From assembly GCA_021513695.1 (NCBI GenBank), contig CP084166.1, positions 2,816,001-2,880,000 of the forward strand: a DNA stretch of 64,000 nucleotides. Direction: 5' to 3'. The translations under genes were made by a program, and so were the position numbers. Source of the DNA: Candidatus Heimdallarchaeum aukensis. GTDB taxonomy: Archaea; Asgardarchaeota; Heimdallarchaeia; Heimdallarchaeales; Heimdallarchaeaceae. Of this stretch, positions 4,195-48,068 are shown one piece after another (position 1 is the stretch's first letter; each line of letters starts with the position of its first letter). The notes beneath the pieces were generated by a model. The model was not told where the DNA came from. It made no database searches and saw nothing but the letters and a program-made list of their open reading frames with translations.

Positions 4195-4389
4195 ATGAAA
4201 AAGATGAGTGAAAAAAAGCAAGAACTAGAGTTCTATTGTAAATTTTGTGATAAAGTGACAACTCAAGTATTCGTTAGAGAAGATAGAAAGAAAACCTTTA
4301 CTTTAATGTTTTATTGCCCCAGCTGTGGAAGCTACCACACATTCGAGTTTTTTGGGTCACAGTTTGAACAACCCACAGATTTAGAGTAA
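4195..4389 (+). CDS. Small zinc-ribbon protein (hypothetical)
   Basis: 64 aa with CKFC...CPSCGSY (CxxC-x20-CxxC). It follows the aminotransferase stop by 20 bp. A T-rich tract follows the ORF. Confidence 0.4.
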   Translation: MKKMSEKKQELEFYCKFCDKVTTQVFVREDRKKTFTLMFYCPSCGSYHTFEFFGSQFEQPTDLE

Positions 4390-4484
4390 TATTCTTTTTT
4401 TTATTATTATTAAGAAAACCATTGTAGCTATCGATATCGCTAGGTTTATATTCTAGAAAAGACATACATTCTATTAGAACCTTA

Positions 4485-7400
4485 ATGGGGTTTGAACTTA
4501 TGAAAAAAAGGATATTTTTAGCGATAGCAATAATTATTGCTCTATTTCCGATTTATCATTCTGGAGTTAATACTCAAGCAACAACTCAACCGGTTGTTAA
4601 TAATAATCAAATAACTCCTGAAGAAATCGGAGTAGGAAGTAAACTAACCTATCAAATAACACAATTTGAATTAGGTTCTGGTTTTGATCAATTATTACAA
4701 GACATAACACAAGATCCAGAAGCACCTGATATCGAGTTTGGTTATGACGGCAGTTTAGTAGGAAGTGAAATATGGTTTTATATCAGTCTTGAAGACCAAC
4801 TGCAATTCTTCCAATACAATTACTCTGACTGGGAGTGGACTAAAGAAAACATTACTCAAAAGAATGTAATGCAAGTTTTAGCTGGAATAAAATTAAGTGA
4901 AGACTTTTCAGCTTTTGCAAACCTATCCCAACTTAATTATCCAGAAGATGCAGTAAGACAAGATGAAGCTTATTATTATGATTCTTGGCCAATGTCTCAC
5001 TTTGAAACACCAATAACAAGTGACGATTTCTGGAATCCATTCAACGAAGGTTTTATAGACGGATTTAATTGGGGATTTTCAGATGAGATAAATGAATATG
5101 ATTGGGCATGGTTCAATTGGCCTAGTCCCGATGAGTATTATGACATGTATTGGTTTGCTCGAGACTTTGGACAAATGTGGGGATATGACACTGGAAGAGA
5201 AGCAGCTATGAATGCAAGAAATGAAAACCCTGGTGATCCTTGGGGAACAGCTTGGAATGATGCTAACTCTGCTAGTGGAGCTTTTAAAGTAGGTTTCTTA
5301 GAAGGCAGAGATGATGGATATAATGAAGGAAAAGATGATTATGTAAATAATAATAGAATCCCAGATAAAACCTTTAGTAATCCTTACGACGCAACTAATG
5401 ATATAACTGATATAGGTAAAAGGCGTGGATATGACGCTGCTTGGCCAGTATATTATGATGCAGGATACTTATATGAAGGAGCACAAGAATATTTCAATGA
5501 CAGACTCTACTGGGAACTATATTGTGATACTTGGGATACCTATCCTGGTGGTTACCTAGACGGATTTAGAGATGGATATTATACTGGTGTTTGGGATGGA
5601 CAATATGACCATGACTATGGAAGCTATGGAGATAACTTCTATCCTCCAGAGGGATATTGGGATCCTCGTGATGAATATCAATGGGGATATAATGATGGTT
5701 TAGCAGAAGGGTATCAATATGGATACGATGACGGTTACAACCAAGTAAATGATTATGAACAATATATCTGGGGTATGGAATCTTATATCTGGAATGCACA
5801 TGAAGATGGTTTTCAAGTTGGAGCTCAAGATTATATAAATAATATTGGTTATGATAATTCAACATTTACATTGCCATTTTCTAGTCCAGCTGATATGTAT
5901 GAAGAGGGAGCTAATTTCATTTATGAAATGATGTATCCTAAAGCTTATGATGATGGATGGAAATATGCTTTTCTTGTAGATAGAGATGGAGACGATTTGA
6001 ATTGGTTAATGCATGAAGGACCATTCTATTACATGTATTTACCTGATGTGATTTTAACTTTACAATCTGGTTCAGTTCTACCTGTACCTACAGATATGAC
6101 AATGTTCAAAGAATTGAACATTAGCATGATGGATTACGAAATCGATTATGATTATGGTGAAAACACAGATCTCTTTACAGAACACTTTACACCTTTCAGT
6201 ATATATGCTCCTGAAAGTGATTGGGCAGAGCTAGATACTTGGGATTGGGCTTTTGACCCAGAAAGTGACATGCCAGGAGTTGCAACAACTATAGATGGAA
6301 ACATATTTGAAATGGTATTCTATTGGGAAGAAGAAAGTGGAGATATTACTTTCGAGCTTACAATTCGTTATGATATGACTACTGGAGTTTTGCAATATTC
6401 TGGTTTTAGTGTAGATTTCACAACAGAAGCAGATATGTACATTAATGTTGCAATGGAGTATGAATCAGATACACAAATCAATCTACCAACACCTGATCCA
6501 ACTTCATGGTCTTACTTAATAGATACATTTAGCTTTACTTATGAATTACCTGATGACGCTCCACCTGAAGTTATAGATGGACTAAATAATTTCAAGAATG
6601 GGGGAGAAGATGCTGTTGGAAACGCATTCATGGACGTCGATTGGATTCAACATCTTGGTCTATGGAATGAATATAACGTTACATTCAAAGATCCTAACAA
6701 CCCAACTGATGCATCAGATCCAGTTACTATAATGCAACCAACTTTATCTCCTGGAATACAAATATTGCCTGATTGGGACCTTTGGGGCGGAATTATGCAA
6801 ACTGGAGATTCTTATTTGGCTATGTCTGAATGGATAGGTAATGCTGTAGATATGTTAAGCGATGCTAACCCAACTTTTGATGCATTTAGAAATGAACTGT
6901 ACTATGAAGTGAGTTCATACCATGATTCAACCAATAATATAATGTATCTCTATGCAGGTATATCTGGAGGATATGAATTACGTGTTGAAATGCTAAATGG
7001 AGATTGGGAATGGGAAGAAACAACAGTCTCATTATACTTCAAACTTGTTTTATGGACAGCCTATGATTATACCACTGGTATTTTCTTAGGAGCTGGTGTA
7101 GAAGGAACAATAGATGAAACATTCACTTCAAATATTCCAACCTCACCTCAGTTCACACTCTATGCAGATATTGATATCAGAATCAGAGCAGATTTAATAT
7201 CAAGTATAACAAGTATAACTGACATTCTAACCTTTGCTGAAATGCCAGAAAAAGACACCGAAGCACCAATCATTTCAGATGTAACTTACAGTCCAGATAA
7301 ACCAACAGAAGAAGATGTTATTACTATTAGTGCTAATGTAACAGATGATAATGGAGTTTGTTCAGTAATCTTACACTACAAGAATGACACATCTGAATGG

Positions 7401-7676
7401 CAAGAAGTAGAAATGGTAGATGATGGAACAGGAATCTACAGCGCTGAAATAGGTCCATTTGCTGCTGATACTGTTGTAGAGTTTTATATTACTGCAACAG
7501 ATATGACAGCTGCACAAAATGAAGCAACAGCAAATAATGGCGGAACAAACTATACAATTGAAATCAAAGGAAAAGGTGTTCTTGGAATTGGATTCAATTT
7601 TGTAGATGTTCTCATTATGGGTCTAGGATTGATCAGCATAGCTTCTCTCCTTACATTAGTAAAGAGAAAGAAATAA
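4485..7676 (+). CDS. Large secreted/cell-surface protein, extremely rich in D/E/Y/W/G quasi-repeats, with an Ig-like domain and a C-terminal TM anchor
   Basis: 1063 aa. N-terminal signal peptide (KKRIFLAIAIIIALFPIYHSG). Repeated 'GYDDGY', 'GYxYGY', 'DGFxDG' and 'WxW' segments. C-terminal beta-rich 'DVTYSPDKPTEEDVITISANVTDDNGV...' Ig-like module. Terminal hydrophobic helix plus KRKK. Confidence 0.6.
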   Translation: MGFELMKKRIFLAIAIIIALFPIYHSGVNTQATTQPVVNNNQITPEEIGVGSKLTYQITQFELGSGFDQLLQDITQDPEAPDIEFGYDGSLVGSEIWFYISLEDQLQFFQYNYSDWEWTKENITQKNVMQVLAGIKLSEDFSAFANLSQLNYPEDAVRQDEAYYYDSWPMSHFETPITSDDFWNPFNEGFIDGFNWGFSDEINEYDWAWFNWPSPDEYYDMYWFARDFGQMWGYDTGREAAMNARNENPGDPWGTAWNDANSASGAFKVGFLEGRDDGYNEGKDDYVNNNRIPDKTFSNPYDATNDITDIGKRRGYDAAWPVYYDAGYLYEGAQEYFNDRLYWELYCDTWDTYPGGYLDGFRDGYYTGVWDGQYDHDYGSYGDNFYPPEGYWDPRDEYQWGYNDGLAEGYQYGYDDGYNQVNDYEQYIWGMESYIWNAHEDGFQVGAQDYINNIGYDNSTFTLPFSSPADMYEEGANFIYEMMYPKAYDDGWKYAFLVDRDGDDLNWLMHEGPFYYMYLPDVILTLQSGSVLPVPTDMTMFKELNISMMDYEIDYDYGENTDLFTEHFTPFSIYAPESDWAELDTWDWAFDPESDMPGVATTIDGNIFEMVFYWEEESGDITFELTIRYDMTTGVLQYSGFSVDFTTEADMYINVAMEYESDTQINLPTPDPTSWSYLIDTFSFTYELPDDAPPEVIDGLNNFKNGGEDAVGNAFMDVDWIQHLGLWNEYNVTFKDPNNPTDASDPVTIMQPTLSPGIQILPDWDLWGGIMQTGDSYLAMSEWIGNAVDMLSDANPTFDAFRNELYYEVSSYHDSTNNIMYLYAGISGGYELRVEMLNGDWEWEETTVSLYFKLVLWTAYDYTTGIFLGAGVEGTIDETFTSNIPTSPQFTLYADIDIRIRADLISSITSITDILTFAEMPEKDTEAPIISDVTYSPDKPTEEDVITISANVTDDNGVCSVILHYKNDTSEWQEVEMVDDGTGIYSAEIGPFAADTVVEFYITATDMTAAQNEATANNGGTNYTIEIKGKGVLGIGFNFVDVLIMGLGLISIASLLTLVKRKK

Positions 7677-7725
7677 ACAATTTTTCTTTTTATTTTTCTT
7701 TTTTTATTCTTGTTTTTGTTCTCAA
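7677..7725 (+). terminator. Oligo-T tract (archaeal intrinsic-terminator-like) after the surface-protein gene
   Basis: Successive T5-T7 runs ('tttttctttttatttttctttttttattcttgtttttgtt') begin directly after the TAA at 7674-7676. Confidence 0.35.
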
Positions 7726-7792
7726 TTACATTAAGCTATAATTTCTAATAAAAATTGTAAAAAAATAAATATGAAAAATAGAATTAAGTGTC

Positions 7793-9250
7793 CTAAATAA
7801 ATGGATTCTTTACAAGTTTCAATGCCATTAGAGTTTTTAGTATTTTCATTCCAATTCTAATTTTGAAATCCATTTTTTTAGCGGCTACACTTAGTTTAGA
7901 AACACGAAAATAAGGAACCTCGTTGTTTAGTCCTTTTTTGCGTTCTTTGGAAATTAAATCAATGTTTTGAATAAGATCTGGTATTGTTCCTGAAATAGTT
8001 ATATCTTGAACAGGGAATGCTATCTCTCCATTTTTTATGTACCATCCAGAACCAGTAACAGAAAATCTTCCTGAGGAAAAGTCACTCATGTGTATTCCCA
8101 TGAAATTTTGTAACATAAAACCTTCTTTTGTTTCCTGTATCATCTCTTCTTTTGATGAATCACCTGGTTCGATTATGGTAGCATAACTGCCAATAGATGG
8201 AGATCTTTTCACAGGATTTCCACCAAAGAATCCTCCTCGTGTTGCTTTACCATTACTTTCCATGTTTAACTTGTTGGCATAATACGAATCTAAGTAGTAG
8301 GTTTGTAGTATTCCGTTCTTAATTAGAGTTGTTTTTTGAGTGGGTATTCCTTCAGCATCGTAGTTTGTACTTGTTATCATATCTGGATGAAGAGGGTCGT
8401 CAATTAAAGTGAAATTGTCAGCAGCTATCTTTTCTCCTATTTTATCAGAAAAGACCGTTTCTCCTCTTGAAGCCTTGTCACCTTTCAATAAATCTGTAAG
8501 TATCATAAACAATCCACCGAAAAGACCATATGATCCTTCTGGAGGAATAATAATAGGATATTCTCCTGATAAAGACAAAGTTTTAGGTTTTGCTACAGCT
8601 AGTGTTTTTTCAATGGCTGTTTTTGTTATTTCTTGTGGATCAATTTTTCCCCACTCTCTAGCACCTTCAAAATGAAAGTCATAGATTGGAAAACCATGGA
8701 TAGATAGAAATCCAATTCCAAGGCCATATCCTGCCTCTTGCTTGTAAATGTCTATTCCAGAAGTGTTTTTTAGAAAAGTTTCACCTGATCCTATATTTCC
8801 CATCGCAGCCAAGAAATACAGATTCTTGGGAAGATCGGTGGGAAGAAGCTGTTCAAAAGGTTTTACAGATTCGTCTATATTCATCTCTATGAATTTTTTA
8901 TCCAATTTAAGGGTATACTCTGCTTTTTTACTTTCTGGAAAAGGAACAATATCTGGGTCAGGTTTCTTGGTTTTGGCATTTTGAATAGCTGCTTTTACTG
9001 TTTGTTGAATGTCTTCACTTCGGAAGGAAGATGTATAAGCAAATCCATATGCATTATTTGCTATAACTCTAAAAGCTATTCCATGTAAAATTCCTAAATT
9101 ATGTTTAGGTTTATTTTTCTCTAATTCAAGATTAAATGTTCTTTCTAGAACTCCAAAACCTTCCGCGTGTTCTGCACCATTCTTTTTTGCATATTCTAAA
9201 CCAATATCTAGAGATTTTTGTATTTTTTCTTTTAAATCGTTACTTACCAT
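7793..9250 (-). CDS. pmbA: PmbA/TldE-family protein (partner of TldD metalloprotease)
   Basis: 485 aa. C-terminal 'GRFSVTGSGWYIKNGEIAFPV' is typical of the TldD/PmbA (PF01523 / PF19289) fold and there is no HExxxH. It lies immediately downstream of TldD in the same orientation. Confidence 0.8.
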   Translation of the reverse strand: MVSNDLKEKIQKSLDIGLEYAKKNGAEHAEGFGVLERTFNLELEKNKPKHNLGILHGIAFRVIANNAYGFAYTSSFRSEDIQQTVKAAIQNAKTKKPDPDIVPFPESKKAEYTLKLDKKFIEMNIDESVKPFEQLLPTDLPKNLYFLAAMGNIGSGETFLKNTSGIDIYKQEAGYGLGIGFLSIHGFPIYDFHFEGAREWGKIDPQEITKTAIEKTLAVAKPKTLSLSGEYPIIIPPEGSYGLFGGLFMILTDLLKGDKASRGETVFSDKIGEKIAADNFTLIDDPLHPDMITSTNYDAEGIPTQKTTLIKNGILQTYYLDSYYANKLNMESNGKATRGGFFGGNPVKRSPSIGSYATIIEPGDSSKEEMIQETKEGFMLQNFMGIHMSDFSSGRFSVTGSGWYIKNGEIAFPVQDITISGTIPDLIQNIDLISKERKKGLNNEVPYFRVSKLSVAAKKMDFKIRIGMKILKTLMALKLVKNPFI

Positions 9251-9259
9251 TTAATTCAC

Positions 9260-10702
9260 CTATCCTACAACAATGTTTTTTACTGCGAGCCAACCTCCAG
9301 AGACACCAACAGGTGCAGATTGACCATCTTTTCCACAAAAGCCTATACTATCTAATGGGTTCTCAAATTCTGGAGAAACGCCAATTATTTTGTTTAAAGT
9401 CTCTAAAGTATTCCCAGCTAAAGTGGTAGGACGATATCTTTTTCCTATTTCACCCTTTTCGATTTTATACAATTCTGCGACTCCAAAATTGAAAGTACCT
9501 TTTATAGGATCTACTTGTCCTCCTCCACCTTGCATAAGGAGAAAACCTTCTTTAGTTAATTCTAGTAACTCTTCAGGTTTCATTGGGTCTTTTGCTGGAG
9601 CAATATAAGTATTAGTCATTCTTACAATTTGAGGAACATTGTAAACCTCTGCTCTTGCATTGCCTGTAGGTTTGAGATCAAAATGCGCAGCTGTAGCTCT
9701 GTCAGTAAGGTATGTTTCAAGAATTCCGTTTCTTATGATGTAAGTTTTCTGACCAGGTACTCCCTCATCATCATATTTAATATAACCAAAGGTGTTGATA
9801 CCGTTAGACTTAATCATTGAACCATCATCTATAAGATTTACAACAGGATTAGCTATCCTTTTTCCTAGTTTGTTTCGAAAAACTCCAGCTACCTGAACAA
9901 AATCTCCTTCTGCTGAATGTCCTGCAGCTTCGTGGGCGAATAAGTGGTTAATTGTACCATCTAAAACTACAGGATATCTCCCAGATTTAACTTTAGGGGC
10001 TTTTAACCCCTCTATTGCTCTCTCCTTTGCTTGTTTTCCTGTTTCTTCTGGAGAACGAATATCAAATAATTCAAGTCCGCCTATATGTCCAATTCTACTT
10101 CTACCTTCAATTGTTTCTGTTCCTTCTCTAGCAACGCTTGTGCAGCCCATCATTACATAAGGAACTTGATATTCAATTCTCAATCCTTCAGTAGTAACAA
10201 GAATTTGGTCTCTCATGATTTCACGATACATGGTTTTACGAGATTTTATTCTCTCGTCTTCTTGAGCTTTATCTGCTTCAAGAGTCAATTTTATTTTTTC
10301 ATCAAAACCAAAGTCTTTAATCTTCTTTTTTTGTTCTCCGATAAATTTATCTTTAACGATCTTGATTTCAGCAAGTTTAATGTCTTCCTTCTTTTGTTTA
10401 ATGTTTAACTTGTTGGCTTGTAAAGCCATGGACACTACTTCTTCATACTTCTCAAAAGGACCATATGCAAAACCCCAAGCATTTTGGTTAAGAACTCTTA
10501 CTCCAATTCCTGATTCTATTCCAGTACTTGAAGTTTCAATTCTACCGTTGACAGCTTTTATTTCTGTCATAAGAGAACTTTCTGCTCGAATGTCTGCATA
10601 GGTTACTCCTTTTTCCTCTAAAATTTTTAAAACTTTAGAAATTGTTTCTTCTCGCATTGTAATCAGATGTAACTCAGAATATTCATTAATAAACATATTC
10701 AA
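9260..10702 (-). CDS. tldD: TldD-family zinc metalloprotease
   Basis: 480 aa. 'HEAAGHSAEGD' (HExxxH), 'GGGGQVDP' and a GxC motif near the C-terminus. The true start may be the internal Met (MREETISK...). Confidence 0.8.
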   Translation of the reverse strand: MNMFINEYSELHLITMREETISKVLKILEEKGVTYADIRAESSLMTEIKAVNGRIETSSTGIESGIGVRVLNQNAWGFAYGPFEKYEEVVSMALQANKLNIKQKKEDIKLAEIKIVKDKFIGEQKKKIKDFGFDEKIKLTLEADKAQEDERIKSRKTMYREIMRDQILVTTEGLRIEYQVPYVMMGCTSVAREGTETIEGRSRIGHIGGLELFDIRSPEETGKQAKERAIEGLKAPKVKSGRYPVVLDGTINHLFAHEAAGHSAEGDFVQVAGVFRNKLGKRIANPVVNLIDDGSMIKSNGINTFGYIKYDDEGVPGQKTYIIRNGILETYLTDRATAAHFDLKPTGNARAEVYNVPQIVRMTNTYIAPAKDPMKPEELLELTKEGFLLMQGGGGQVDPIKGTFNFGVAELYKIEKGEIGKRYRPTTLAGNTLETLNKIIGVSPEFENPLDSIGFCGKDGQSAPVGVSGGWLAVKNIVVG

Positions 10703-10762
10703 ACATTTTTGATATCATTGGAAAGATTAATCTACTAGGTATTTTATTTAATCACGAATAAA

Positions 10763-11479
10763 ATGAGCCAAAATCAACATATTGATATTGTAAAAAATTA
10801 CAACAACGTGTTATCTAATATCGAAAAAAGCGCAAAGAAAGCAGGCCGAGACCCTTCTGAGATTACATTAGTTGGAGTCACAAAGAGAATAGAGATTGAA
10901 AGAATTATTCCAGTTTTAAAAGAAGGATTAAAAATAATTGGAGAGATAGTTGGAAAAGAACTAAAACAGAAAATTGATGTGTTAAAACAAAATAATGCTA
11001 CTATTCATGTTATTGGAAAATTACAATCAAATAAAGTTAAGTTCGCTGTAGAAAAATGTGATCTTGTTCAATCCGTTCATAATGAAAAAATACTTTCCTT
11101 AATTAATAAAAGAGCTAAAATGAATAAGAAAGTTTTTCCAATATTTTTACAGATCGATTTTAGTAATCTTGAAGTTAGGAAAGGGTTAAACCTCGAAGAA
11201 ACAAAAAAAATTATTCGTTTAATTAATACTAAATACAATAATGTAGAAATACAAGGTTTTATGACTATTGCTCCTTTGCAGTACATGGAAAATAAAAAGA
11301 TACTAGCGAAATTCTTCCAAAAAACAAGAGAATATGTTGATAACGAATTAGCTCCAATGATAGAATATGATAACTTACAACTCTCAATGGGTATGACAGA
11401 TGCATACCAACTCGCAATTGAAAATGGCTCAACAATGGTTAGAGTTGGAACAGCGATATTTGGGCCTCGGAATAAGTAA
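10763..11479 (+). CDS. YggS/PLPHP-family pyridoxal-phosphate homeostasis protein (alanine-racemase N-terminal-domain fold)
   Basis: 238 aa. 'LVGVTK' (PLP Lys) near the N-terminus and C-terminal 'SMGMTDAYQLAIENGSTMVRVGTAIFG' characteristic of UPF0001/YggS. Confidence 0.8.
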   Translation: MSQNQHIDIVKNYNNVLSNIEKSAKKAGRDPSEITLVGVTKRIEIERIIPVLKEGLKIIGEIVGKELKQKIDVLKQNNATIHVIGKLQSNKVKFAVEKCDLVQSVHNEKILSLINKRAKMNKKVFPIFLQIDFSNLEVRKGLNLEETKKIIRLINTKYNNVEIQGFMTIAPLQYMENKKILAKFFQKTREYVDNELAPMIEYDNLQLSMGMTDAYQLAIENGSTMVRVGTAIFGPRNK

Positions 11480-16823: not shown

Positions 16824-19800
16824 TTATTTCTCTTCAGCGGAAATAGATGGATAGTCAGATAATCTAAATATTGCTTCCTTCATAGTTTCTATTAGATCAA
16901 TTACTTTTTTGTCTCCTTGTTCAAGTAAATAGTTTGTTGCTGCTTTAATTCCATCAATTAAAGGTTCTGTCATCTCATCAAACTTATACCTTGCTACGAA
17001 ACGAATTATATCGCTTATAACTACTAACCTATCTAAATGTTTTGTCATCTTTTTAAAGTATTCAGGTTCAATGTAACACTTGACTATCCAGTCTTTTCCT
17101 CCTGATATGACTGAGATATTGTCAAATCTATAAAGTGCAGTTACTTCACTCTTAGTTGAAAAAATTTCTTTAGGAATGGTTCCAAGGTCAATATAGAAGC
17201 CTTTTCTATCTGTTGACAGTTCTAAATCTCGATTTACAAACGAATCATGAATTAAACGGATATAATTGTTGATCAGTTTAATTAGAGTGTTTCCTAGAGA
17301 GCGCATATTAATATATAGATTTGTTTCAAACTCCTTTCTGGTTTTACTTTTTGTCCAGGCTCTTTTAACAGTAAGCATAGCGCTTTTAGCATCTTGTATC
17401 ATTTGATTATAAGAATCATCTATAACATAGTCTGGAATTCTACGATAAAGTAAAATGGAGAGAGCAATCTCTAAGAAGTTTTTAGGTAGCTCTTCTAATT
17501 CTCTTTCTCTTACTTCTTTAATTATTGCATCGATTTTTGTTTTACATTCTTCAACACTAGGGGTGAATTGATTGGGTTGGAGTTTTTTATAATGAAAAGC
17601 GTCATCAATCCAGTTTTCGTAATTCTTCCTAATGTAATCCAAGTGAGTATCAATTGTTCCTATTTTAGATTTTACCCAGTGTTGAATATCTGAAAATATT
17701 TTCTTATTTACAGGTTCCCAAGATTTAATCAACTTTCCTCTTATCTTTTTAAGTTCTTTTTCTGCAGAAGTGTAAAGCTTTTTAGCTTTTTCGTTATAAT
17801 GAATATCATTACTTCTTAATTGTGCAAAGGAAGAAAGCAGATCCTGCAATACTTTTTGAACTCTGCTTGAATTTTTATTCCAAATATCATAACAATTGAT
17901 ATGATAATTTTTACTTGCAAAATTTTCAGGTACATTCTTAAACTCTGGAAAAGATGGAAAAGATTCTTTTATCTCTGGTAGTAAATTGGCATTTCTTAAT
18001 TTTGATACTCTCTCTTTTTGGAATAAAGTAATAAGATTATCTAATTTAGCCACTATATCAGATTCAAATTTGAATATCTTCTCTGGATAGCTACTCATCA
18101 TTTTTCTGATGATTGAATTCTTATAACTTGAATTGAGAATCTTGTGATCAATTAAACAAGCAGTAAGTATCTCTGGGTTGGATTCAGCTTGAGAAAGAGA
18201 GAAAACGCTATTATCATATCTAACTGTTAAACCTGGTTTTAGCAACAATTCATAAACAGAAATAGCTCTCTTATCAAATTTTAATTGTATTTTACCAAAA
18301 AAACTTTTTTTGTAAACTACAGGTACAGACTTGATATATGCTTTTAGAAATCCCGTGTTTATAGCTCCACCTATTAAATCTCTTGCTGTTAGACTTAGTT
18401 GTTTACCTATTTCAAGTTCTCTCTTACGAATATCTTGAATATAGTTGGATATAATTGTTGAAAAAATGTATAATGGGATAATCTTCTTGAAAGAATTGAT
18501 GATATATAAATAGATATTACCAAGAGAAAAATTGAAGAACTGATCCTGAACAATTTTGACCAAAGTTGAGATAATTGCTCTCTCTAATGCTTTAGCAAAA
18601 ATAACAGATTCTTCAATATTTGATATTTGTAACCTTTCTCCCACACCAGCATTTTCTATAATTGAGGTAAGCTCTTTCAGGAGATTTTTGCCTACATTTG
18701 TAAGCTTTTGAATTTTGCCTATAATAAATTCTTTCTTAAGATTAAGCGTTGAACCTCCTTTCTTTGACTTCTTTACAGTTTTGATATTTTCTTCAGTAAT
18801 AATAGCAAAAGTAAAATCATTTATGACACTCCATACACTTGGAGGAAGTTCTCTCTCTTTGAATGAACCTATTAATTGACTAAAGAAAAGTCTCGCTCCT
18901 TGAAGAATCAAAGGTTCAGCATCTTCTGTTAATGCATCACAAATTATGTCTCCTTGATTGATAGGGCTTATCTTCTCTTTAATCGTTTTTTGTAATTTTT
19001 GGTATATTTTAACATCTCTAAAATCTATCAAACCCATTAATGGTTTCTTTTTTGCTATGCTTAGAATAATTTCTTTACTTAACTCATCAGCAATAAAAGT
19101 TTCTGCAGAATGGATAGCAGAAATTGAAAGTTTGGAGTAAATTGAATTTATTTTCTTGTCCAATTTTTTACCTAAATACTCATCAATTAGATCCTCTGCT
19201 TTTGGAGAATGCTTTTTTAGATAATTCTCTATTCTAGAAGAGATTTCATCTACTGCATATCTAGGATTTTTATATTGTAAGATTGCAAAAGGATTCTCAA
19301 GAGAAATAATATTTAATATGTCTTGAGAAAGCATTTGAATAATAAGTTGACGTTTAAATGAATTAATCGTTCCTTTATCCCATGACTGTTCTTCTTCTTT
19401 TAACCATGCTTCTAAGTTTTTCATTTGAAGAAGAGTAGGGTAAATATCAGGTTGTGTAGCTGCTTTTTCTATGTGGTCATTAATCAAGTTGATGAAAACT
19501 GAGCTATTTTCTTTTATGCTGATTTTTTGCCTTGCAATTGTGCAAGCATTAAGAAATGATTTGGATACATAGTCTGGGGAAACAGTTCTTCCCGATTCTA
19601 CATTATCATAAAAATTAGGTGTAAGTGTGATAAATTTACCAAATGATAATGCTAACTCCTGTACTAAACTTTCATCCTCAATAGAAATTGTATTAGCTGT
19701 TTCTGATCGAACAATATATTGAACAACGATATTTGTTTCTTCGCTAGGCATGGTAAAACTACCAAAGCGAACAAATTCGTTCTGACCAGTCATAAATTGT

Positions 19801-19970
19801 GAATCACTGACATTAACTTCTGTAGTCATTAGACTTTGCAAAGATAATAATATTCCTTGCATCATGCTTGAATCTTTAGGCAAATGACCTACTGAAGCAA
19901 AGCTTATTCCCGCATCACTACCAACAGAAATCCATAAATCATAGGGATACTCTTTACTCATATTTCTCAC
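16824..19970 (-). CDS. Large orphan protein (1048 aa), no recognisable catalytic motif. It has an N-terminal ~140-aa alpha/beta region followed by a long helical body
   Basis: A long uninterrupted ORF in otherwise well-conserved gene context. Its codon usage is similar to neighbouring genes. No Walker, HxH, or Cys-cluster motifs. Confidence 0.55.
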   Translation of the reverse strand: MRNMSKEYPYDLWISVGSDAGISFASVGHLPKDSSMMQGILLSLQSLMTTEVNVSDSQFMTGQNEFVRFGSFTMPSEETNIVVQYIVRSETANTISIEDESLVQELALSFGKFITLTPNFYDNVESGRTVSPDYVSKSFLNACTIARQKISIKENSSVFINLINDHIEKAATQPDIYPTLLQMKNLEAWLKEEEQSWDKGTINSFKRQLIIQMLSQDILNIISLENPFAILQYKNPRYAVDEISSRIENYLKKHSPKAEDLIDEYLGKKLDKKINSIYSKLSISAIHSAETFIADELSKEIILSIAKKKPLMGLIDFRDVKIYQKLQKTIKEKISPINQGDIICDALTEDAEPLILQGARLFFSQLIGSFKERELPPSVWSVINDFTFAIITEENIKTVKKSKKGGSTLNLKKEFIIGKIQKLTNVGKNLLKELTSIIENAGVGERLQISNIEESVIFAKALERAIISTLVKIVQDQFFNFSLGNIYLYIINSFKKIIPLYIFSTIISNYIQDIRKRELEIGKQLSLTARDLIGGAINTGFLKAYIKSVPVVYKKSFFGKIQLKFDKRAISVYELLLKPGLTVRYDNSVFSLSQAESNPEILTACLIDHKILNSSYKNSIIRKMMSSYPEKIFKFESDIVAKLDNLITLFQKERVSKLRNANLLPEIKESFPSFPEFKNVPENFASKNYHINCYDIWNKNSSRVQKVLQDLLSSFAQLRSNDIHYNEKAKKLYTSAEKELKKIRGKLIKSWEPVNKKIFSDIQHWVKSKIGTIDTHLDYIRKNYENWIDDAFHYKKLQPNQFTPSVEECKTKIDAIIKEVRERELEELPKNFLEIALSILLYRRIPDYVIDDSYNQMIQDAKSAMLTVKRAWTKSKTRKEFETNLYINMRSLGNTLIKLINNYIRLIHDSFVNRDLELSTDRKGFYIDLGTIPKEIFSTKSEVTALYRFDNISVISGGKDWIVKCYIEPEYFKKMTKHLDRLVVISDIIRFVARYKFDEMTEPLIDGIKAATNYLLEQGDKKVIDLIETMKEAIFRLSDYPSISAEEK

Positions 19971-28200: not shown

Positions 28201-29550
28201 ATGAAATATAAACAAGTTTTTTTTGTATTTACAACTCTAATCTTATTCTCTTCATTAATTGCTAACATCAATCTCATTACTTATGCACAAGATGACGAAT
28301 CAGAGTGGGATTTTTCCGGAGTAATTAGGGTAGATAGTGAATTAAGAAGACCTCCAATTTTTCAAGCTGAAGAACTAGATCAAACTAAACCAACAATTTT
28401 TCCTTTAAATGATGTAAGCTTAGAACTTAATACAACTGAAAACAGTCTTCAATGGTTTGTATCTGATTTGTATCCAGGAGATTTCCCTGATAACTATTCA
28501 ATTTATATGAATGATAGTCTTATTCAAAATGGGAAATGGGAATCAAATCAATATATAACTGTAAATTTGGACGATTTAGAAAATGGGAATTATCGTTATT
28601 CTATAATTATTCAAGATATTAAAGGGAACAAAGCTCAAGATGAAGTTTATGTAAGTGTAGTAAATGAAACTGCTCCATACATAAGACAAGTAGCAGATAT
28701 AGAGTTCTTTGAGGGGAGTAGCATTGGACCAATTGTTTGGCAAGTAACTGATAAAAATCTATCAAGTTATGTAATTCAACGAAATGGAGGAACAGTAGAC
28801 TCGAATACTTGGTCAGAAAATACTAGTGAAAGTGATTGGAACCCAGAGAGCCCAACTATTTCTTACGCTATATCTGCATTAGAGATAGGAGAACATAATA
28901 TTACTCTAATTGTTGAAGATATTTATGGACAGCAAAGTGTTGACACAGTTATTGTAACAGTAAAGGATCCGTCAACTAGAATAAATTATGAAAATTATGA
29001 ACCTCCTAACATAGAAATAGCAGTACTAGGTTTGGACACAAATGATGATGATTCAATGGATACTTACTATGGATTTTATGGAATAATCGAAGATCCAGGT
29101 GTGGAAGGGTACTTTACTAAAATCCTTGAACCATACCTTGGTGCAACTTGGAGAATGAGAATTCCTCAAGATTCCCCAGCTACTTGGGAAGTAATATACT
29201 ATCCTAATCCTATATATGATAAAATAAGGCCTTATTTAGCTTATGAAGCACCAGTATATTTTGTTAACTTAACAGTTGCCACTGGCGTAAATTTAGAATA
29301 TGAAATAGATCTCGGAAGAAACACAACATATGGAAACTTAACAACATATGGTGCTGACAATCCATTGTTCCCAGAAGTACCAGAGTACTCAGGATATAAT
29401 TTTGCCATTCCATACTACACAGGAACAAAAGAAAATGAAGTTACAGTAGAAACTGATTTCTTTAGCAGCCTATCATCAATGATAAGTATTGTATCTCTTT
29501 CATTTTCAGTTTTAGTCCTTTATAATAAAACGAAAAGAAAAATGAAATAA
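28201..29550 (+). CDS. Secreted protein with two Ig-like repeats and a C-terminal TM anchor
   Basis: Signal peptide. Two internally similar ~90-aa beta-rich modules ('LQWFVSDLYPGD...NGNYRYSIIIQD' and 'IVWQVTDKNL...GEHNITLIVED'). C-terminal helix plus 'KTKRKMK'. Confidence 0.5.
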   Translation: MKYKQVFFVFTTLILFSSLIANINLITYAQDDESEWDFSGVIRVDSELRRPPIFQAEELDQTKPTIFPLNDVSLELNTTENSLQWFVSDLYPGDFPDNYSIYMNDSLIQNGKWESNQYITVNLDDLENGNYRYSIIIQDIKGNKAQDEVYVSVVNETAPYIRQVADIEFFEGSSIGPIVWQVTDKNLSSYVIQRNGGTVDSNTWSENTSESDWNPESPTISYAISALEIGEHNITLIVEDIYGQQSVDTVIVTVKDPSTRINYENYEPPNIEIAVLGLDTNDDDSMDTYYGFYGIIEDPGVEGYFTKILEPYLGATWRMRIPQDSPATWEVIYYPNPIYDKIRPYLAYEAPVYFVNLTVATGVNLEYEIDLGRNTTYGNLTTYGADNPLFPEVPEYSGYNFAIPYYTGTKENEVTVETDFFSSLSSMISIVSLSFSVLVLYNKTKRKMK

Positions 29551-42725: not shown

Positions 42726-43496
42726 TTATTTAGAAAGTTTTAGTTTGAAAATTCCTGGAAAGTAATACTGACCCGTTTCTTCATCCTCAACTGCCAAACC
42801 AATCTCTGCCATCTTAGACAAAGTATCAACCGCACGCTCTGAAGACCAACCTAAATGTGATACAAGAATATCTCTAGTCAAAAATTCTAACCCTGTAGCT
42901 AACTGAAGAACAGCGCGAAAATCAGAAGAAGTTTCTAAAGGCTTGAATCTGATTAATACTTCATCATTTCCAAGATCAATTTCAGGTGGAATAACTTTAT
43001 CTTTCTGTAGAGAACGAATAGCTCGAATAATATGACTGGGACTAACTTCCCAGTTAGGACGAGTCTCCTTGAAATAATCAATGAAATTACCTAAAGTAAT
43101 AGCTCCACCAAATTCTTCTAATTCCTCATTACCTATTATTAGTATTTCTTGTCTAAGTTTTTGTTCGAAACCTTTACTGCCAAAAAGAACAGGAGTTTTC
43201 ATTTTTCCTGCAGTACCAATTGAACCAGTAAGTCCAGCTTGTTCTCGCAATTGCATGATTTTGTTAACTAAAAGTTTCGAAGACTTTAGAAGCTTCTTTG
43301 AATCCTTTTCAACTTTAATAATTCCTTCTTTAAGAATCTCTTTTCGTTTTTGTTTATCTTTCTCCTGAGTGGAAACTAAATCAGTATCAAACGCTTTATA
43401 CGCTTGTGAAAGAGAAGAACGAAAATCTTCATCAGAAATTTCTCTAACTTCCTTTTTTTCGTCTTCTGTTTCTTTCTTTCCTTTTCTTTTACCCAT
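42726..43496 (-). CDS. vps22: ESCRT-II subunit Vps22/SNF8 (EAP30-domain, tandem winged-helix) homolog
   Basis: The C-terminal half aligns by eye with human SNF8: 'VSPSHIIRAIRSLQKDK' ~ 'VSQDDLIRAIKKLKALG'; 'AVLQLATGLEFLTRDILVSHLGWSSERAVDTLSKMAEIGLAVEDEETGQYYFPGIF' ~ 'VVLQLAEKNGYVTVSEIKASLKWETERARQVLEHLLKEGLAWLDLQAPGEAHYWLPALF'. Also 'GSKGFEQ' ~ 'SGKGFWSE'. Start set at the internal Met (MGKRKGKK). Confidence 0.7.
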   Translation of the reverse strand: MGKRKGKKETEDEKKEVREISDEDFRSSLSQAYKAFDTDLVSTQEKDKQKRKEILKEGIIKVEKDSKKLLKSSKLLVNKIMQLREQAGLTGSIGTAGKMKTPVLFGSKGFEQKLRQEILIIGNEELEEFGGAITLGNFIDYFKETRPNWEVSPSHIIRAIRSLQKDKVIPPEIDLGNDEVLIRFKPLETSSDFRAVLQLATGLEFLTRDILVSHLGWSSERAVDTLSKMAEIGLAVEDEETGQYYFPGIFKLKLSK

Positions 43497-43751
43497 CAGT
43501 ATCAAGAGAAAATAAACAAGCATTATTTAAAAAACTATTCAATTCGAAAAATGAATGTTTTTTAAAATCTAAAAAATAATTAACCGTTTCTAGCAGCTCT
43601 AACCAATTTCTGTTAAATCCAAACATTAAAAACATTTGTAGCTAAAGAAGCTTTAAGTCTAAAGAATATTAAAATTAGGATTTAAAAATATAAAAACAAA
43701 AATCAAAAATAGTATTAATAAATTAGAACATAAATAAATAAACAATTTATA

Positions 43752-45416: not shown

Positions 45417-48068
45417 ATGAAAAGAATAACAACATATAGACAGTTAGGTTTGGTGCTAATATTAATAGCAACTACAACTTTCTTACTTTATCTTTCGACT
45501 CATAAAGAGGAAAATATGGTCCTGCAATCTAATAAAATAACAATAGATTCAATGTCTGGCGTAAATTCAGATGAAAATAGAACTGTAAAAAAAGCTTATT
45601 CAGTTCATTCTCCTATTCTTATTGAGTCTGATGATGATCTTACAGGTTTTCCAGGTTTAGGAACAAAGGATGACCCCTATGTCATTGAAAACTACAATAT
45701 AACTGACTCTACAACTCATGGTATAAAGATATCTGGGACTACAAAGTATATTCTTATTCACGATTGTTATCTTAATGGGGGAGGTTCAGGTTCATCATTT
45801 TATGGTATTTATATTGACTCTACTACAGATGGAACTATAACTGTGACTAACAACACAATAAGCAACTATGCTACTGGTATTTACCTTTCTTCTTGTTCTA
45901 ATAACTCCTTTACTTTTAATATAATAACGAATAGTAATAATGACGGCTTATATCTCTCTTCTAGCTCTAACAATACTTTTTCTTCTAATACAATAACAAA
46001 CAGTGACGATGATGGAATAACTATCTCTTTTAGTTCTGGTAACACACTCACATTTAATAATATAACAAATAATAACGGTGAGGGAATTTATTTTTCTTTT
46101 AGTTCAAATAATAACCTTGCTTCAAATATTATAGCAGAGAATATTAATTATGCAATAGATCTCTATTCTAGTTCAAGTAATACTTTTGTAAAAAACTTAT
46201 TTATCAAAAATAATCAAGGAGGTTCGTCTCAAGCTAGTGATAGTGGAACAATTAATAAATTCTATACTGATATAACTGGAAACTATTGGTATGATTGGAA
46301 TGGAACAGGAATATATGCGATAGATGGTTCAGCTAACAACTTTGATCCTTATCCTATGCATGTAGACCTTGATCGAGATGGTATGCCTGACAAATGGGAA
46401 GAAGATAATGGATTAAACACTAATATCAATGATTCTGCAGAAGATCTCGATAGTGACGGTTTAACTAATTTAGAAGAATACACTAGCAACACTAATCCTA
46501 ACTACTCTGACACTGATTCAGATGGCTTATCAGACGGAGAAGAGGTTCACACTTATTTTACTGATCCACTTGATTTTGATACTGACGATGATGGATTATT
46601 GGATGGTGAAGAAGTTAAAACCTATTCTTCAAATCCCAACAATCCAGATACTGATTCGGATGGTATGCCTGATGGTTGGGAGGTGAATTATGGTTTAAAC
46701 CCCTCAAATGATGAGTCTACAGAGGATTTTGATGGTGACGGTTTAAGTAACGTTGCTGAGTATTCTCACAATACTGACCCTACTAACCCTGATACTGATA
46801 ATGATGGCTTGTTCGACGGTCAGGAAATTAATACTTATGGTACTGATCCTACTAACCCTGATACTGACGGCGATGGTTTATCTGATGGCGAAGAGGTTGA
46901 TGTTTATGGTACAGACCCTCTTAATCCAGATACAGATAATGATGGTGTATCTGATGGTGAAGAAGTAAGTAAAGGAAAGAATCCAAAAGGTTCTTCTCTT
47001 TTTGCATATTTGTTCTCTTCACTTGCTAGTTCTATAATTACTATAATAGTTTTAGTGTTAGTAATTACAATCATTATCGCTTCTATAGTCGATATAATGA
47101 AGAAAAAAAAGAATAAACAGATGGATGAAACAAAGAAGCAAAAGATAACGAAAATAACGAAAAAAAAGAAAATAGGGTTGAAGTTCTTTAATGAGAAAAT
47201 AGATTCACTCGAAAATGAGTGGTCATGGGTAGAAAGAGAACAAAAAAGCGGTCAATCTTTATTCGATACAGCTTTTTCTGAGAAAATATCTGAACTATTT
47301 GTAGAATTAATTGAGACATTAATAGGATTTAATTACGCTTTTACAAAAGATGTAAAGTATCTAACAAACCTTGATTGGTTAAGCGCAAAAAAAAGACTAA
47401 ATAGCTTAGTTGACCAATTCAGAGCTTTATTGCTCAAAGAGCTAGAAGAAATTGATATTGATACAAAATTTGAAGAAATAAATAATGAATTGACAAAGAT
47501 AACTTTAGAAAATATTGAGAAACCCTCTGAAGATAAATTATTACAACCATTTGACGTTTTACTTGATACACTTGTAAAAATTGACAAGAATATAAGAAAA
47601 ACTGAGTCATTTATTGACGAATTCACTTTTTCTAAACTGACTTCTTACTGGGGAAAACTGTCTGACATTATAGTTACAGTAAAATCAGAAGTTGAAAATA
47701 AAAGAAGTGAGGTAAGGAAGAATATCAAAGAAGTAAAAGAAGTATTTACTGATAAAAGGATGAACCTTGAAAGGTTAGAGACCCTTAATAAAGTAGTTTC
47801 AGTCTATAAACAGATTTCACTTTCCAAACTAGCTTACTTGCTCAAATTTTCATCTAACTCTGCCCTAATTTACTGGATGTCAAAGCAAAATTTGGATTTT
47901 TCTTATAGGATTGTTGATGATGAGATAATTTTTGAAAAACAGGAAGAAGGAGAAAAAGAAGAAGGAAAAGAAGAAATAGAATACGATAGTGAAGTGGCTG
48001 ATGCAATAGACTCTCTATTAAGACAATACGATGAATGGTCAAAAGGTGATGAAGGAAAAAAGATTTAA
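45417..48068 (+). CDS. Type-I-like transmembrane surface protein: N-terminal anchor/signal, parallel beta-helix (PbH1/NosD-like) repeats, about 9 thrombospondin-type-3-like Ca-binding repeats, single TM, ~320-aa cytoplasmic coiled-coil tail
   Basis: 883 aa. 'TNNTISNYATGIYLSS..NNSFTFNIITNSNNDGLYLSS' PbH1 repeats. 'DTDSDGLSDGEEV', 'DTDDDGLLDGEEV', 'DTDNDGLFDGQEI', 'DTDGDGLSDGEEV', 'DTDNDGVSDGEEV' repeats. TM 'IITIIVLVLVITIIIASIV' followed by poly-K. Confidence 0.7.
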   Translation: MKRITTYRQLGLVLILIATTTFLLYLSTHKEENMVLQSNKITIDSMSGVNSDENRTVKKAYSVHSPILIESDDDLTGFPGLGTKDDPYVIENYNITDSTTHGIKISGTTKYILIHDCYLNGGGSGSSFYGIYIDSTTDGTITVTNNTISNYATGIYLSSCSNNSFTFNIITNSNNDGLYLSSSSNNTFSSNTITNSDDDGITISFSSGNTLTFNNITNNNGEGIYFSFSSNNNLASNIIAENINYAIDLYSSSSNTFVKNLFIKNNQGGSSQASDSGTINKFYTDITGNYWYDWNGTGIYAIDGSANNFDPYPMHVDLDRDGMPDKWEEDNGLNTNINDSAEDLDSDGLTNLEEYTSNTNPNYSDTDSDGLSDGEEVHTYFTDPLDFDTDDDGLLDGEEVKTYSSNPNNPDTDSDGMPDGWEVNYGLNPSNDESTEDFDGDGLSNVAEYSHNTDPTNPDTDNDGLFDGQEINTYGTDPTNPDTDGDGLSDGEEVDVYGTDPLNPDTDNDGVSDGEEVSKGKNPKGSSLFAYLFSSLASSIITIIVLVLVITIIIASIVDIMKKKKNKQMDETKKQKITKITKKKKIGLKFFNEKIDSLENEWSWVEREQKSGQSLFDTAFSEKISELFVELIETLIGFNYAFTKDVKYLTNLDWLSAKKRLNSLVDQFRALLLKELEEIDIDTKFEEINNELTKITLENIEKPSEDKLLQPFDVLLDTLVKIDKNIRKTESFIDEFTFSKLTSYWGKLSDIIVTVKSEVENKRSEVRKNIKEVKEVFTDKRMNLERLETLNKVVSVYKQISLSKLAYLLKFSSNSALIYWMSKQNLDFSYRIVDDEIIFEKQEEGEKEEGKEEIEYDSEVADAIDSLLRQYDEWSKGDEGKKI

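Follow-up and report, generated by a model that had tools for sequence, protein, structure and literature searches.

Within the window, the 64,000-nt stretch of DNA analysed here as a whole, we found a complete gene on the + strand that encodes an 883-aa protein (Table 1), exactly where the original prediction had placed such an open reading frame (45417-48068). The gene appears to be monocistronic, with gaps of 297 bp upstream and 254 bp downstream, and since the adjoining genes are unrelated housekeeping genes, its genomic context provides no functional clue. Located 2 kb upstream, on the opposite strand and beyond one unrelated gene, is an ESCRT-II-like EAP30 gene whose synteny is conserved. 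No tRNA or Rfam elements were detected within the window, and an exact-sequence look-up with the 883-aa protein returned no record. The evidence presented below argues strongly that this Heimdallarchaeaceae (Asgard) gene product is a cell-surface protein that crosses the membrane once, in type I (N-out, C-in) orientation.

Table 1. Gene at the locus and segments of its predicted protein, with positions in the window
Feature	Residues	Position	Strand	Remarks
Complete gene	1-883	45417..48068	+	883 codons plus stop; coordinates identical to those first proposed
N-terminal hydrophobic segment	9-28	45441..45500	+	Kyte-Doolittle; K2, R3 and R8 ahead; predicted signal peptide or uncleaved signal anchor
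Right-handed parallel beta-helix (NosD/PbH1 type)	98-296	45708..46304	+	Pfam, TIGR03804; predicted extracellular head
Nine TSP3-type calcium-binding repeats	317-516	46365..46964	+	Pfam TSP3_bac, regex; predicted extracellular stalk
Membrane-spanning segment	527-563 (core about 539-560)	46995..47105	+	Kyte-Doolittle up to 3.39
Polybasic juxtamembrane stretch	561-589	47097..47183	+	14 K/R in residues 561-590; mark of the cytoplasmic side
Helical region	590-780	47184..47756	+	Predicted bundle of long helices, cytoplasmic
PCI-like winged-helix subdomain	781-840	47757..47936	+	
Acidic linker of variable length	841-857	47937..47987	+	pLDDT <50 at tail residues 280-290; predicted disordered
Invariant amphipathic C-terminal helix and terminal motif	858-883	47988..48065	+	AIDSLLRQYDEW-SKGDE-GKK-I; hydrophobic moment 0.55

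Ectodomain and membrane topology

Profile matching recovered both outer modules of the original prediction, a beta-helix and about nine thrombospondin type-3 (TSP3)-like repeats. The beta-helix matched Pfam Beta_helix (PF13229) at residues 129-277 (E 2e-25, 89.7 bits vs. a cut-off of 25.9), NosD (PF05048) at residues 98-296 (E 6e-23, 81.8 bits vs. 23.6) and, in three stretches, the parallel beta-helix repeat TIGR03804 (47.1 bits vs. 19.45). The protein is not a member of the NosD copper-maturation family (TIGR04247; 29.5 bits vs. 300 needed full-length), and its common feature with NosD is the beta-helix fold only. The repeats matched Pfam TSP3_bac (PF18884) far above chance (122.9 bits vs. 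a gathering cut-off of 25, E 3.9e-36, 7 stretches), and a regular-expression search of residues 317-516 identified seven strict D-x-D-x-D-G-x-x-D-x-x-E motifs plus two degenerate ones, nine repeats in all. Calcium-binding TSP3 repeats also occur in the surface adhesion proteins CglD and MtsD of Myxococcus, whose NCBIfam equivalogs were matched partially and through the repeats alone (NF033765 and NF047639; 66.5 vs. 400 and 31.9 vs. 800 bits, respectively); however, CglD/MtsD-type proteins are lipoproteins or secreted and, unlike the window protein, have neither a transmembrane span nor a cytoplasmic domain.

A Kyte-Doolittle scan revealed two hydrophobic segments in the 883-aa protein, residues 9-28 and 527-563, and since the former is predicted to be a signal peptide or anchor, the mature protein would have one span. 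The 30 residues that follow this span contain 14 K/R, whereas the 30 that precede it contain 3 K/R and 7 D/E; an equivalent span is present in all full-length homologs, and a K/R cluster follows it in every homolog. Applying the positive-inside rule and considering the nature of the domains, we strongly predict that the beta-helix and TSP3 repeats face outside and the tail inside, because of the K/R asymmetry, the positively charged N-terminus before the first hydrophobic segment, the typically extracytoplasmic TSP3 and beta-helix modules and the same pattern in all homologs. The overall layout originally proposed (adhesion-type modules outside, one span, a large folded inner domain) is borne out by these observations. 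N-glycosylation sequons were discarded as topology evidence: nine lie outside and none inside, yet composition alone predicts 14 and 2.

The tail comprises residues 564-883 and has a pI of 5.2; its length of 320 aa agrees with the first estimate. This layout had been called unusual, and the long tail is unusual relative to two other surface-protein ORFs of the window (4485-7676 and 28201-29550), in which the span is followed by only 4-7 basic residues. With 320 residues after the span, the protein also departs from the conventional archaeal C-terminal anchor (a span plus few basic residues, or PGF-CTERM).

A tail family in Heimdallarchaeaceae

An HMM search of 1.8 billion representatives returned 13 matches. 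Eight carry TSP3 repeats, span and tail (some N-terminally truncated, and one, P0008, without the tail end), four others are tail fragments, and the last (P0011) is a spurious repeat protein that we rejected as a repeat artefact. A genome scan placed the tail family in Heimdallarchaeaceae only, with source names in agreement, and a metagenome scan added solely the contig of P0001. When used as queries against the word index, the tail, its alignment (scoring the 8000 candidates with most words in common) and the C-terminal module retrieved only P0001, P0013 and P0014, a sparse yield that probably arose because K/E-rich low-complexity words dominated.

The original prediction had pointed to paralogs as a check, and at least nine tail-family copies were found in Ca. 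Heimdallarchaeum endolithica PR6, one of them the syntenic ortholog of the window gene (L001 4388-10876, 2162 aa). All six PR6 paralogs scanned have a beta-helix, as does L003 from another MAG, and five of the six have TSP3 repeats as well; the syntenic ortholog has TSP3 repeats only, more than 40 of them, and its ectodomain differs 2.4-fold in size from that of the window protein. Ectodomains vary widely among homologs whereas tails are conserved: the paralogs are 22-27% identical overall, yet 13 tail columns are invariant, eight of them in the C-terminal motif, and column identity, 0.15-0.45 elsewhere, rises to 0.62-0.77 over the winged helix and the final 20 residues. The ectodomain is of an adhesin or coat type and changes quickly, from nine repeats here to more than 40 in the syntenic ortholog. 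Public annotations describe family members only as 'hypothetical', 'beta-helix repeat' or 'TSP3 repeat' and leave the tail unannotated. The tail defines a small, previously undescribed family, and, judged from sequence, the window gene is not a one-off but one of a set of paralogs that is specific to Heimdallarchaeaceae.

Structure of the tail and its likeness to PCI domains

AlphaFold2 produced a tail model with pLDDT 79.7 and pTM 0.63, built on only 12 related sequences (a model from 2 sequences, with pLDDT 49, was discarded as unusable), in which a helical bundle leads into a winged helix, and an acidic linker then connects to an amphipathic helix at the C-terminus. In place of the coiled coil first suggested, we prefer a helical bundle, as AlphaFold2 predicts seven loop-joined helices of 14-46 residues. 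The winged-helix resemblance first noticed in the segment LSKLAYLLKFSSNSALIYWMSKQNLDFSYRIVDDEIIF (residues 802-839) reappeared in the model, which assigns it the strand-helix-helix-strand-strand order of a winged helix. Its net charge is near neutral (+1).

Pfam PCI (PF01399) was the sole family matched by more than one member (6/16, best E 1e-3), although neither the best member (19.5 bits) nor the window module (14.7 bits, E 0.036) reached the gathering cut-off of 22 bits that defines membership by score; two other PCI-clan families, CSN8_PSD8_EIF3K and Paf67/eIF3L, were matched once each. The top PDB profile match was Rpn5, over the winged helix and the following helix, and hhalign of the tail against Rpn5 gave P 1.9e-4 and a probability of 47% over 25 columns, vs. 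0.1% in a control alignment of the tail module with the neighbouring EAP30 protein. Kinship of the tail with that protein (ESCRT-II EAP30/Vps22/Vps36) is not supported by this value, nor by Pfam searches of the protein and family members, which gave no EAP30 match. In a Foldseek search against the PDB, the first 16 matches were all COP9 signalosome or 26S proteasome chains or Rpn12, with Csn12 and eIF3 chains lower in the list (best E 2.8e-3, TM-scores ≤0.2). Designer PPR proteins, retrieved with the full-tail profile against the PDB (E 1e-10), had no single significant stretch and were judged a summed-repeat artefact.

PCI subunits of the 26S lid, the COP9 signalosome and eIF3 are the top structural and profile matches of the tail, and the model of the tail seems to follow these proteins (Rpn5/PSMD12, CSN3, CSN7, Rpn12, eIF3a/k/l) in its order of a helical hairpin or bundle region, a winged helix and a C-terminal helix; Rpn5 has the same order of winged helix, linker and C-terminal helix, and the PCI signature near the first winged-helix helices agrees (KVVSVYKQISLSKLAYLLKF vs. 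VISEYYSRITLLRLNELLDL). PCI proteins, however, are soluble, eukaryotic and joined with MPN partners in fixed complexes, whereas the module of the window family forms the cytoplasmic tail of a surface protein with one span, scores below Pfam thresholds, has low global TM-scores and carries a C-terminal motif of its own. While each of the PCI signals (Pfam, Foldseek, hhalign) is sub-threshold alone, we infer with moderate confidence that the winged helix of the tail is homologous to the PCI type.

We considered whether the protein could be an ordinary coat protein whose long tail is a mere anchor without specific interaction, its PCI resemblance being the chance likeness of a generic helical and winged-helix fold. 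This appears quite unlikely, as five independent methods give the same domain class, conservation is stronger in the tail than in the ectodomain (the 13 invariant columns persisting at 22-27% identity), and tails of 4-7 residues suffice to anchor the other surface proteins of the window, leaving 320 residues unneeded.

The original prediction had read the layout as signalling-receptor-like. In a model of this kind, a ligand or calcium outside would alter the tail, and the winged helix would bind DNA or RNA, whether in place at the membrane or once set free by proteolysis. Our analysis confirms a receptor-like layout, and winged helices often bind nucleic acids, but here the winged helix has a net charge of +1 and the whole tail is acidic, Pfam and NCBIfam scans of the protein detected no kinase, cyclase, HAMP, receiver or other signalling domain, and at least nine paralogs with near-identical C-terminal modules argue against specific DNA targets. 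Membrane-tethered wHTH regulators of the ToxR/CadC type are oriented the opposite way, with an OmpR-type wHTH and its basic DNA-binding surface at the cytoplasmic N-terminus, one span and a periplasmic sensor at the C-terminus, and no Pfam match to Trans_reg_C was found. Some PCI winged helices do bind RNA, according to two reports (PMC10378293, PMC3315329), which speaks for such a regulator; we nevertheless regard it as very unlikely. The PCI-type, near-neutral winged helix favours assembly or docking over DNA binding or classical signalling.

The C-terminal motif

Full copies of the family all end in [AS]IDxL[LI]xx[FY]xxW-x5-GKK-x-stop, a motif not found outside the family in the searches run. 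Invariant throughout the family (tail numbering) are A300, I301, D302, L304, L305, W311, K318 and K319, and G317 is nearly so. The distance from motif to stop is fixed in 12/12 motif matches of the fetched loci, corresponding to 11 distinct genes, while the linker ahead of the C-terminal helix differs in length among homologs. The terminus itself varies: the window protein ends in …EGKKI, and subtypes include …GEGKKx and …GKGKKK.

One possibility is that this helix folds onto the inner leaflet, where it would shape or sense curvature, with the remaining tail as a spacer. Its hydrophobic moment (0.50-0.55) and a stripe of five hydrophobic residues (I, L, L, Y/F, W) ahead of GK(G)KK are in keeping with this, but the polar face is acidic (D, D/S, D/E, E) and net negative, which is unfavourable on anionic membranes and unlike known membrane-targeting helices, and the conservation of the winged helix and helical bundle would be left unexplained; we consider such a role highly improbable.

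Alternatively, the C-terminal helix and GKKx-COOH common to the paralogs may be a sorting signal, read by an Asgard machinery for trafficking or membrane remodelling (ESCRT-related, adaptin-like or other) that would direct the delivery or uptake of surface-coat proteins. In all 12 matches the motif keeps a constant spacing from the free C-terminus, and a variable disordered linker tethers it, as with short linear motifs. Eukaryotic KxKxx signals have lysines at -3 and -5, as does the …GKGKKK subtype; the …EGKKI of the window protein and the …GEGKKx subtype, however, fit neither KKxx nor KxKxx. Among the motif classes compared (KKxx/KxKxx, acidic-dileucine, MIM, LIR and WH2), none fits all subtypes, and we retain them as leads only. 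The nearby EAP30 gene, with its conserved synteny, also favours a sorting role, but it is on the other strand with an unrelated gene between, and hhalign found no sequence relation between tail and EAP30. PCI-like winged helices have been proposed to contact ESCRT winged-helix proteins (PMC10936438). Internal vesicles in a Heimdallarchaeaceae culture are lined with the coat of the cell surface, yet the preprint that describes this culture reports a genome without classical endocytic machinery (10.1101/2025.11.06.686947). Sorting as the role of the tail is, in our estimation, unlikely.

Discussion

We propose that the locus encodes a surface protein with a PCI-type tail for assembly or docking, which on balance we hold to be a probable, and the best, explanation of the whole. 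The protein would most likely serve as an adhesin or coat component at the surface, with a tail that forms oligomers or docks to a common partner in the cytoplasm. Outside, nine calcium-binding TSP3 repeats would form the stalk that carries a NosD-type beta-helix head; inside, a helical bundle would lead to the PCI-type winged helix, from which a flexible acidic linker would extend to the invariant amphipathic helix ending in GKKx-COOH. By analogy with the proteasome lid, the COP9 signalosome and eIF3, whose PCI subunits assemble through contacts between the edges of their winged helices and through bundling of their C-terminal helices, the tails may join surface proteins into homo-oligomers, or hetero-oligomers among paralogs; alternatively, they may dock them onto one common cytoplasmic partner. 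In either role, the non-crystalline coat of S-layer-less cells would be organised and anchored from inside. This analogy gives weak to moderate support to assembly or docking as the function of the tail.

Similar modules are found in other membrane proteins. DDRGK1/UFBP1 has an ER membrane anchor and a scaffold built jointly with a partner. Like the window protein, it is anchored in the membrane and has a long, charged helical region as well as a PCI-like winged helix on the cytosolic side (annotated as PCI-type in PMC3071830), but its anchor is N-terminal, it has no ectodomain and it functions in UFMylation. In archaea, a small PCI-like winged helix has been noted before at the C-terminus of membrane-associated proteins from ESCRT neighbourhoods, with oligomerisation or contacts between winged helices as its proposed role (membrane Ser/Thr kinases and Asgard HTH/PCI proteins; Makarova et al., 2024, PMC10936438). 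Judged by these descriptions the window family is set apart: whereas the earlier proteins are encoded in ESCRT loci and join an N-terminal span to Ig-like repeats and a kinase domain, it has no kinase, bears a beta-helix/TSP3 ectodomain and lies outside ESCRT operons. Thrombospondin/COMP type-3 repeats have their repeat chemistry in common with the window protein, and integrins and cadherins offer a works-like analogy only, with a calcium-dependent ectodomain, one span and a scaffold-recruiting cytoplasmic tail; none of these shows head or tail homology to the window protein. An integrin-like or cargo-like type I family, in which PCI-type tails and a C-terminal signal would be read by a cytoplasmic scaffold, the cytoskeleton or ESCRT-related trafficking, seems to us quite improbable.

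Asgard archaea are without S-layers and bear an undefined coat of surface proteins, none of which, to our knowledge, has been characterised. In cultured members of Heimdallarchaeaceae and Lokiarchaeia, an amorphous coat of protein takes the place of an S-layer (bioRxiv 10.1101/2025.11.06.686947; PMC9834061), and in a Heimdallarchaeaceae culture the internal vesicles are lined by the same coat as the cell surface (10.1101/2025.11.06.686947). This coat is thought relevant to the cell-cell contacts invoked in eukaryogenesis, and the tail family supplies named, testable coat candidates in the lineage closest to a cultured Heimdallarchaeaceae strain. The family stands out in that its most conserved part is predicted to face the cytoplasm, which makes it a candidate link between the unusual surface coat of the lineage and the cytoplasm, and in that a PCI-like module, otherwise emblematic of eukaryotic complexes, is here fused to a surface protein. 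The PCI-like tail and strictly placed motif in at least nine paralogs suggest an inside-outside coupling or sorting mechanism undescribed in archaea. If the tails are read by cytoplasmic machinery, the coat would be coupled to the inside of the cell and to the vesicles seen within cultured relatives; if true, the logic of eukaryotic receptor tails and sorting signals would have a forerunner in archaea, and the PCI scaffold an early use outside the proteasome.

Domain architecture and membrane topology

We found the gene exactly at the position originally predicted, and its product carries the two modules that had been read in its outer part, a PbH1-type beta-helix and about nine TSP3-like repeats (features listed in the table; a motif scan of residues 317-516 gives nine repeats, seven strict D-x-D-x-D-G-x-x-D-x-x-E and two degenerate). 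Both are ordinary modules and are recognized as members by their families' own tests. A parallel beta-helix repeat was also matched in NCBIfam; the NCBIfam matches to CglD, MtsD and NosD were all sub-threshold and driven by repeats, and these scores rule out an ortholog of any of the three. The single span and long tail were likewise recovered, with 3 K/R and 7 D/E in the 30 residues before the span and 14 K/R in the 30 residues after it, and we strongly infer an N-out/C-in topology, with an extracellular ectodomain and a cytoplasmic tail. The window encodes two further predicted surface proteins (4485-7676, +, 1063 aa, no Pfam match; 28201-29550, +, 449 aa, weak PKD-like match); each starts with a signal segment and has, at its C-terminus, a span with just 4-7 basic residues behind it. 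These short ends are conventional archaeal anchoring, in contrast with the 320-residue tail.

Features of the surface-protein gene and its product
Feature	Position	Strand	Details
Surface-protein ORF	45417..48068	+	883 aa
N-terminal hydrophobic segment	residues 9-28		K2, R3, R8 ahead (hydropathy)
Right-handed beta-helix	residues 98-296		Pfam Beta_helix E 2e-25, NosD E 6e-23
TSP3 repeats	residues 317-516		Pfam TSP3_bac 122.9 bits vs 25-bit cut-off, E 3.9e-36, seven stretches
Second hydrophobic segment	residues 527-563		very hydrophobic, then MKKKKNKQMDETKKQKITKITKKKKIGLKF (hydropathy)
Tail	residues 564-883		320 aa; includes winged-helix-like segment at 802-839
Winged helix	residues ~799-840		strand-helix-helix-strand-strand after helices (AlphaFold2)
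Final helix	residues 858-876		AlphaFold2 model

Distribution of the tail family

The G+C content of the window is ~31%. Word-index searches with the tail returned one fragment only, and an HMM search run exhaustively over 1.84 billion representatives returned 13 proteins, one of which (P0011) was rejected as a repeat artefact. In eight of the other 12, TSP3 repeats, one span with a K/R cluster behind it and the tail occur together, with N-terminal truncation in some and no tail end in P0008; four are tail fragments. P0008 (UJG45006.1, from Ca. Heimdallarchaeum endolithica PR6) has 290 residues: TSP3 repeats, the span and the tail's first half are present, the winged helix and the C-terminal motif are absent, and truncation or decay of a paralog may be the reason. 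With one genome per prokaryotic species, the tail occurs in two genomes only, at three loci in PR6 and in a Heimdallarchaeota MAG; every member in the database is named as coming from 'Candidatus Heimdallarchaeaceae/Heimdallarchaeum', their annotations are merely hypothetical, beta-helix-repeat or TSP3-repeat protein, and a scan of JGI metagenomes for the tail gave no new member. The tail-bearing gene is real, and its family is real and narrow.

The window holds one copy, and paralogs were found in PR6, where a 35-kb region (overlapping loci L002 and L004) contains eight more, all with span and tail and with rve integrases between them; among five cluster copies scanned, all have a beta-helix and four have TSP3 repeats as well. 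The rve-type integrase/transposase genes (L002 6005-6793, +, and 13267-14205, +; PR6, ~605-640 kb) interspersed among the eight paralogs, together with near-duplicate copies (1063 vs 1061 aa), suggest recent duplication or mobile-element shuffling of the cluster. Beside it, a radical SAM/SPASM protein with a PqqD-like region (L004 14014-15402, -) adjoins a 562-aa ORF ending in GGGGGGGCACACACACACAGGGR (L004 15329-17017, -), and the two may form a peptide-modification (RiPP-like) pair.

A third PR6 locus, L001, shares the gene order of the window (POR gamma, EAP30, beta-CASP, surface-protein gene, OMP-decarboxylase-like, MFS, DUF362, amidohydrolase). Its ortholog (4388-10876, +) is 2.4-fold longer (2162 vs 883 aa); 43 TSP3-like motifs were counted in it, and a beta-helix was not detected. 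This argues that repeat expansion quickly alters the ectodomain and leaves the tail intact; span and tail are ~65% identical to those of the window protein. Ortholog and paralog comparison together mark the ectodomain as plastic and the tail as the conserved, family-defining part. Two genes upstream of the surface-protein gene, between a DUF211 gene and the beta-CASP nuclease, lies a gene for a stand-alone EAP30/Vps36-family (ESCRT-II-like) protein (42726-43523, -; Pfam E 5.8e-11), which keeps its position in PR6 (L001 1847-2662, -). The presence of such a gene suggests that the DNA is that of an Asgard archaeon. No ESCRT operon is visible around the gene, and hhalign found no profile similarity between its product and the tail module (probability 0.1%). 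Also in the window, a 1048-aa ORF (16824-19970, -) with no transmembrane segment and no Pfam match at E 1e-4 encodes a large uncharacterised cytoplasmic protein.

Conservation and predicted fold of the tail

Through most of the tail, column identity is 0.15-0.45; it rises to 0.62-0.66 in the winged helix and to 0.77 in the last 20 residues. The 12 aligned sequences share just 24-27% overall identity, with 13 invariant tail columns (including A300, I301, D302, L304, L305, W311, K318 and K319). All 12 motif matches in the fetched loci, which come from 11 distinct genes (L002 and L004 overlap), read [AS]IDxL[LI]xx[FY]xxW, exactly five residues, GKK, one residue and stop. A sorting signal is an attractive but unlikely reading of this motif: it is locked to the free C-terminus, and relatives have internal vesicles lined with surface coat (bioRxiv 10.1101/2025.11.06.686947), but known dilysine rules are not met in all subtypes and there is no known reader protein.

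AlphaFold2, run on the 12-sequence alignment (mean pLDDT 79.7, pTM 0.63; pLDDT 49 with two sequences only), predicts helices of 46, 27, 26, 14, 22, 39 and 17 residues with loops between, then the winged helix that had been suspected from residues 802-839, an acidic linker of low confidence, and the final helix. Of the features first described, the coiled coil alone was not supported; the upstream part is modelled as a helical bundle, with no demonstrable coiled coil. The final helix is amphipathic (hydrophobic moment 0.55; stripe I, L, L, Y/F, W), but its polar face is acidic, which makes it very improbable that it binds membrane. Another tail alignment (A4, profile positions 118-161, ~690-735 in the window protein) matched designer pentatricopeptide-repeat proteins in PDB at E 1e-10 with no stretch significant by itself; this is most likely a summed-repeat artefact, and could hint at helical-hairpin repeat character around residues 690-735.

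Likeness of the tail to PCI proteins

When 16 C-terminal modules were compared with Pfam at permissive thresholds, PCI (PF01399) was the sole family matched by more than one member (6/16; best E 1e-3, 19.5 bits vs cut-off 22), and CSN8_PSD8_EIF3K and Paf67/eIF3L of the PCI clan had one match each. Among all PDB sequences, the best match of the module profile was yeast Rpn5 at residues 349-425 (E 0.17), which cover its PCI winged helix and the beginning of its C-terminal helix, with eIF3a also among the matches; hhalign with Rpn5 (a three-sequence alignment from PDB matches) gave P 1.9e-4 and 47% probability over the signature 'KVVSVYKQISLSKLAYLLKF / VISEYYSRITLLRLNELLDL'. The first 16 Foldseek matches of the model in PDB were only COP9-signalosome/26S-proteasome entry chains and Rpn12, with Csn12 and eIF3 chains lower down (best E just 2.8e-3; TM-scores <=0.2). 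These signals are each weak and all point in the same direction. Judged from sequence and model, the tail appears to resemble PCI proteins both in fold and in the order of its parts (helical region, winged helix, linker, C-terminal helix), and we infer with moderate confidence that it is related to PCI scaffolds by homology or convergence. PCI proteins are its closest likeness, yet the tail falls below the curated PCI sequence threshold and stands in a wholly different context. The nearest published precedent is that of archaeal membrane kinases and Asgard ESCRT-associated proteins, some of which end in a PCI-like winged helix, for which a role in oligomerisation has been proposed (PMC10936438), though their architectures are unlike that of this family.

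That the tail is a passive anchor resembling PCI by chance is quite unlikely, given its conservation pattern and the short tails of the two other surface proteins encoded in the window. A membrane-tethered regulator binding nucleic acid is more doubtful still: the winged helix is near-neutral and the tail acidic, the window protein has no signalling domain, and there are many near-identical modules.

Proposed role

In the proteasome lid, CSN and eIF3, PCI subunits are joined where the edges of their winged helices touch and where their C-terminal helices form a bundle. The PCI fold itself is bipartite (PMC1274264, PMC9467303). A C-terminal helix that is nearly identical in otherwise divergent paralogs would suit a shared bundle as well as a shared partner; most economically, the tails would oligomerise the surface proteins or attach all of them to a single cytoplasmic partner. 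In place of an S-layer, Heimdallarchaeaceae and Lokiarchaeia carry an amorphous coat of protein (bioRxiv 10.1101/2025.11.06.686947; PMC9834061), and paralogous beta-helix/TSP3 proteins with plastic ectodomains would be natural candidates for coat and adhesion. The receptor-like layout first proposed stands, and we would sharpen its reading, leaning somewhat towards an adhesin or a protein of the surface coat whose PCI-like tail would serve assembly or docking in the cytoplasm.

No description of the tail family was found in full-text literature on Asgard/Heimdall surface proteins, nor does the Heimdallarchaeum genome paper refer to it. Familiar modules are arranged here in an undescribed, lineage-specific way, and the conserved C-terminal motif is new; the family bears on Asgard cell biology and supplies candidates that can be tested directly.
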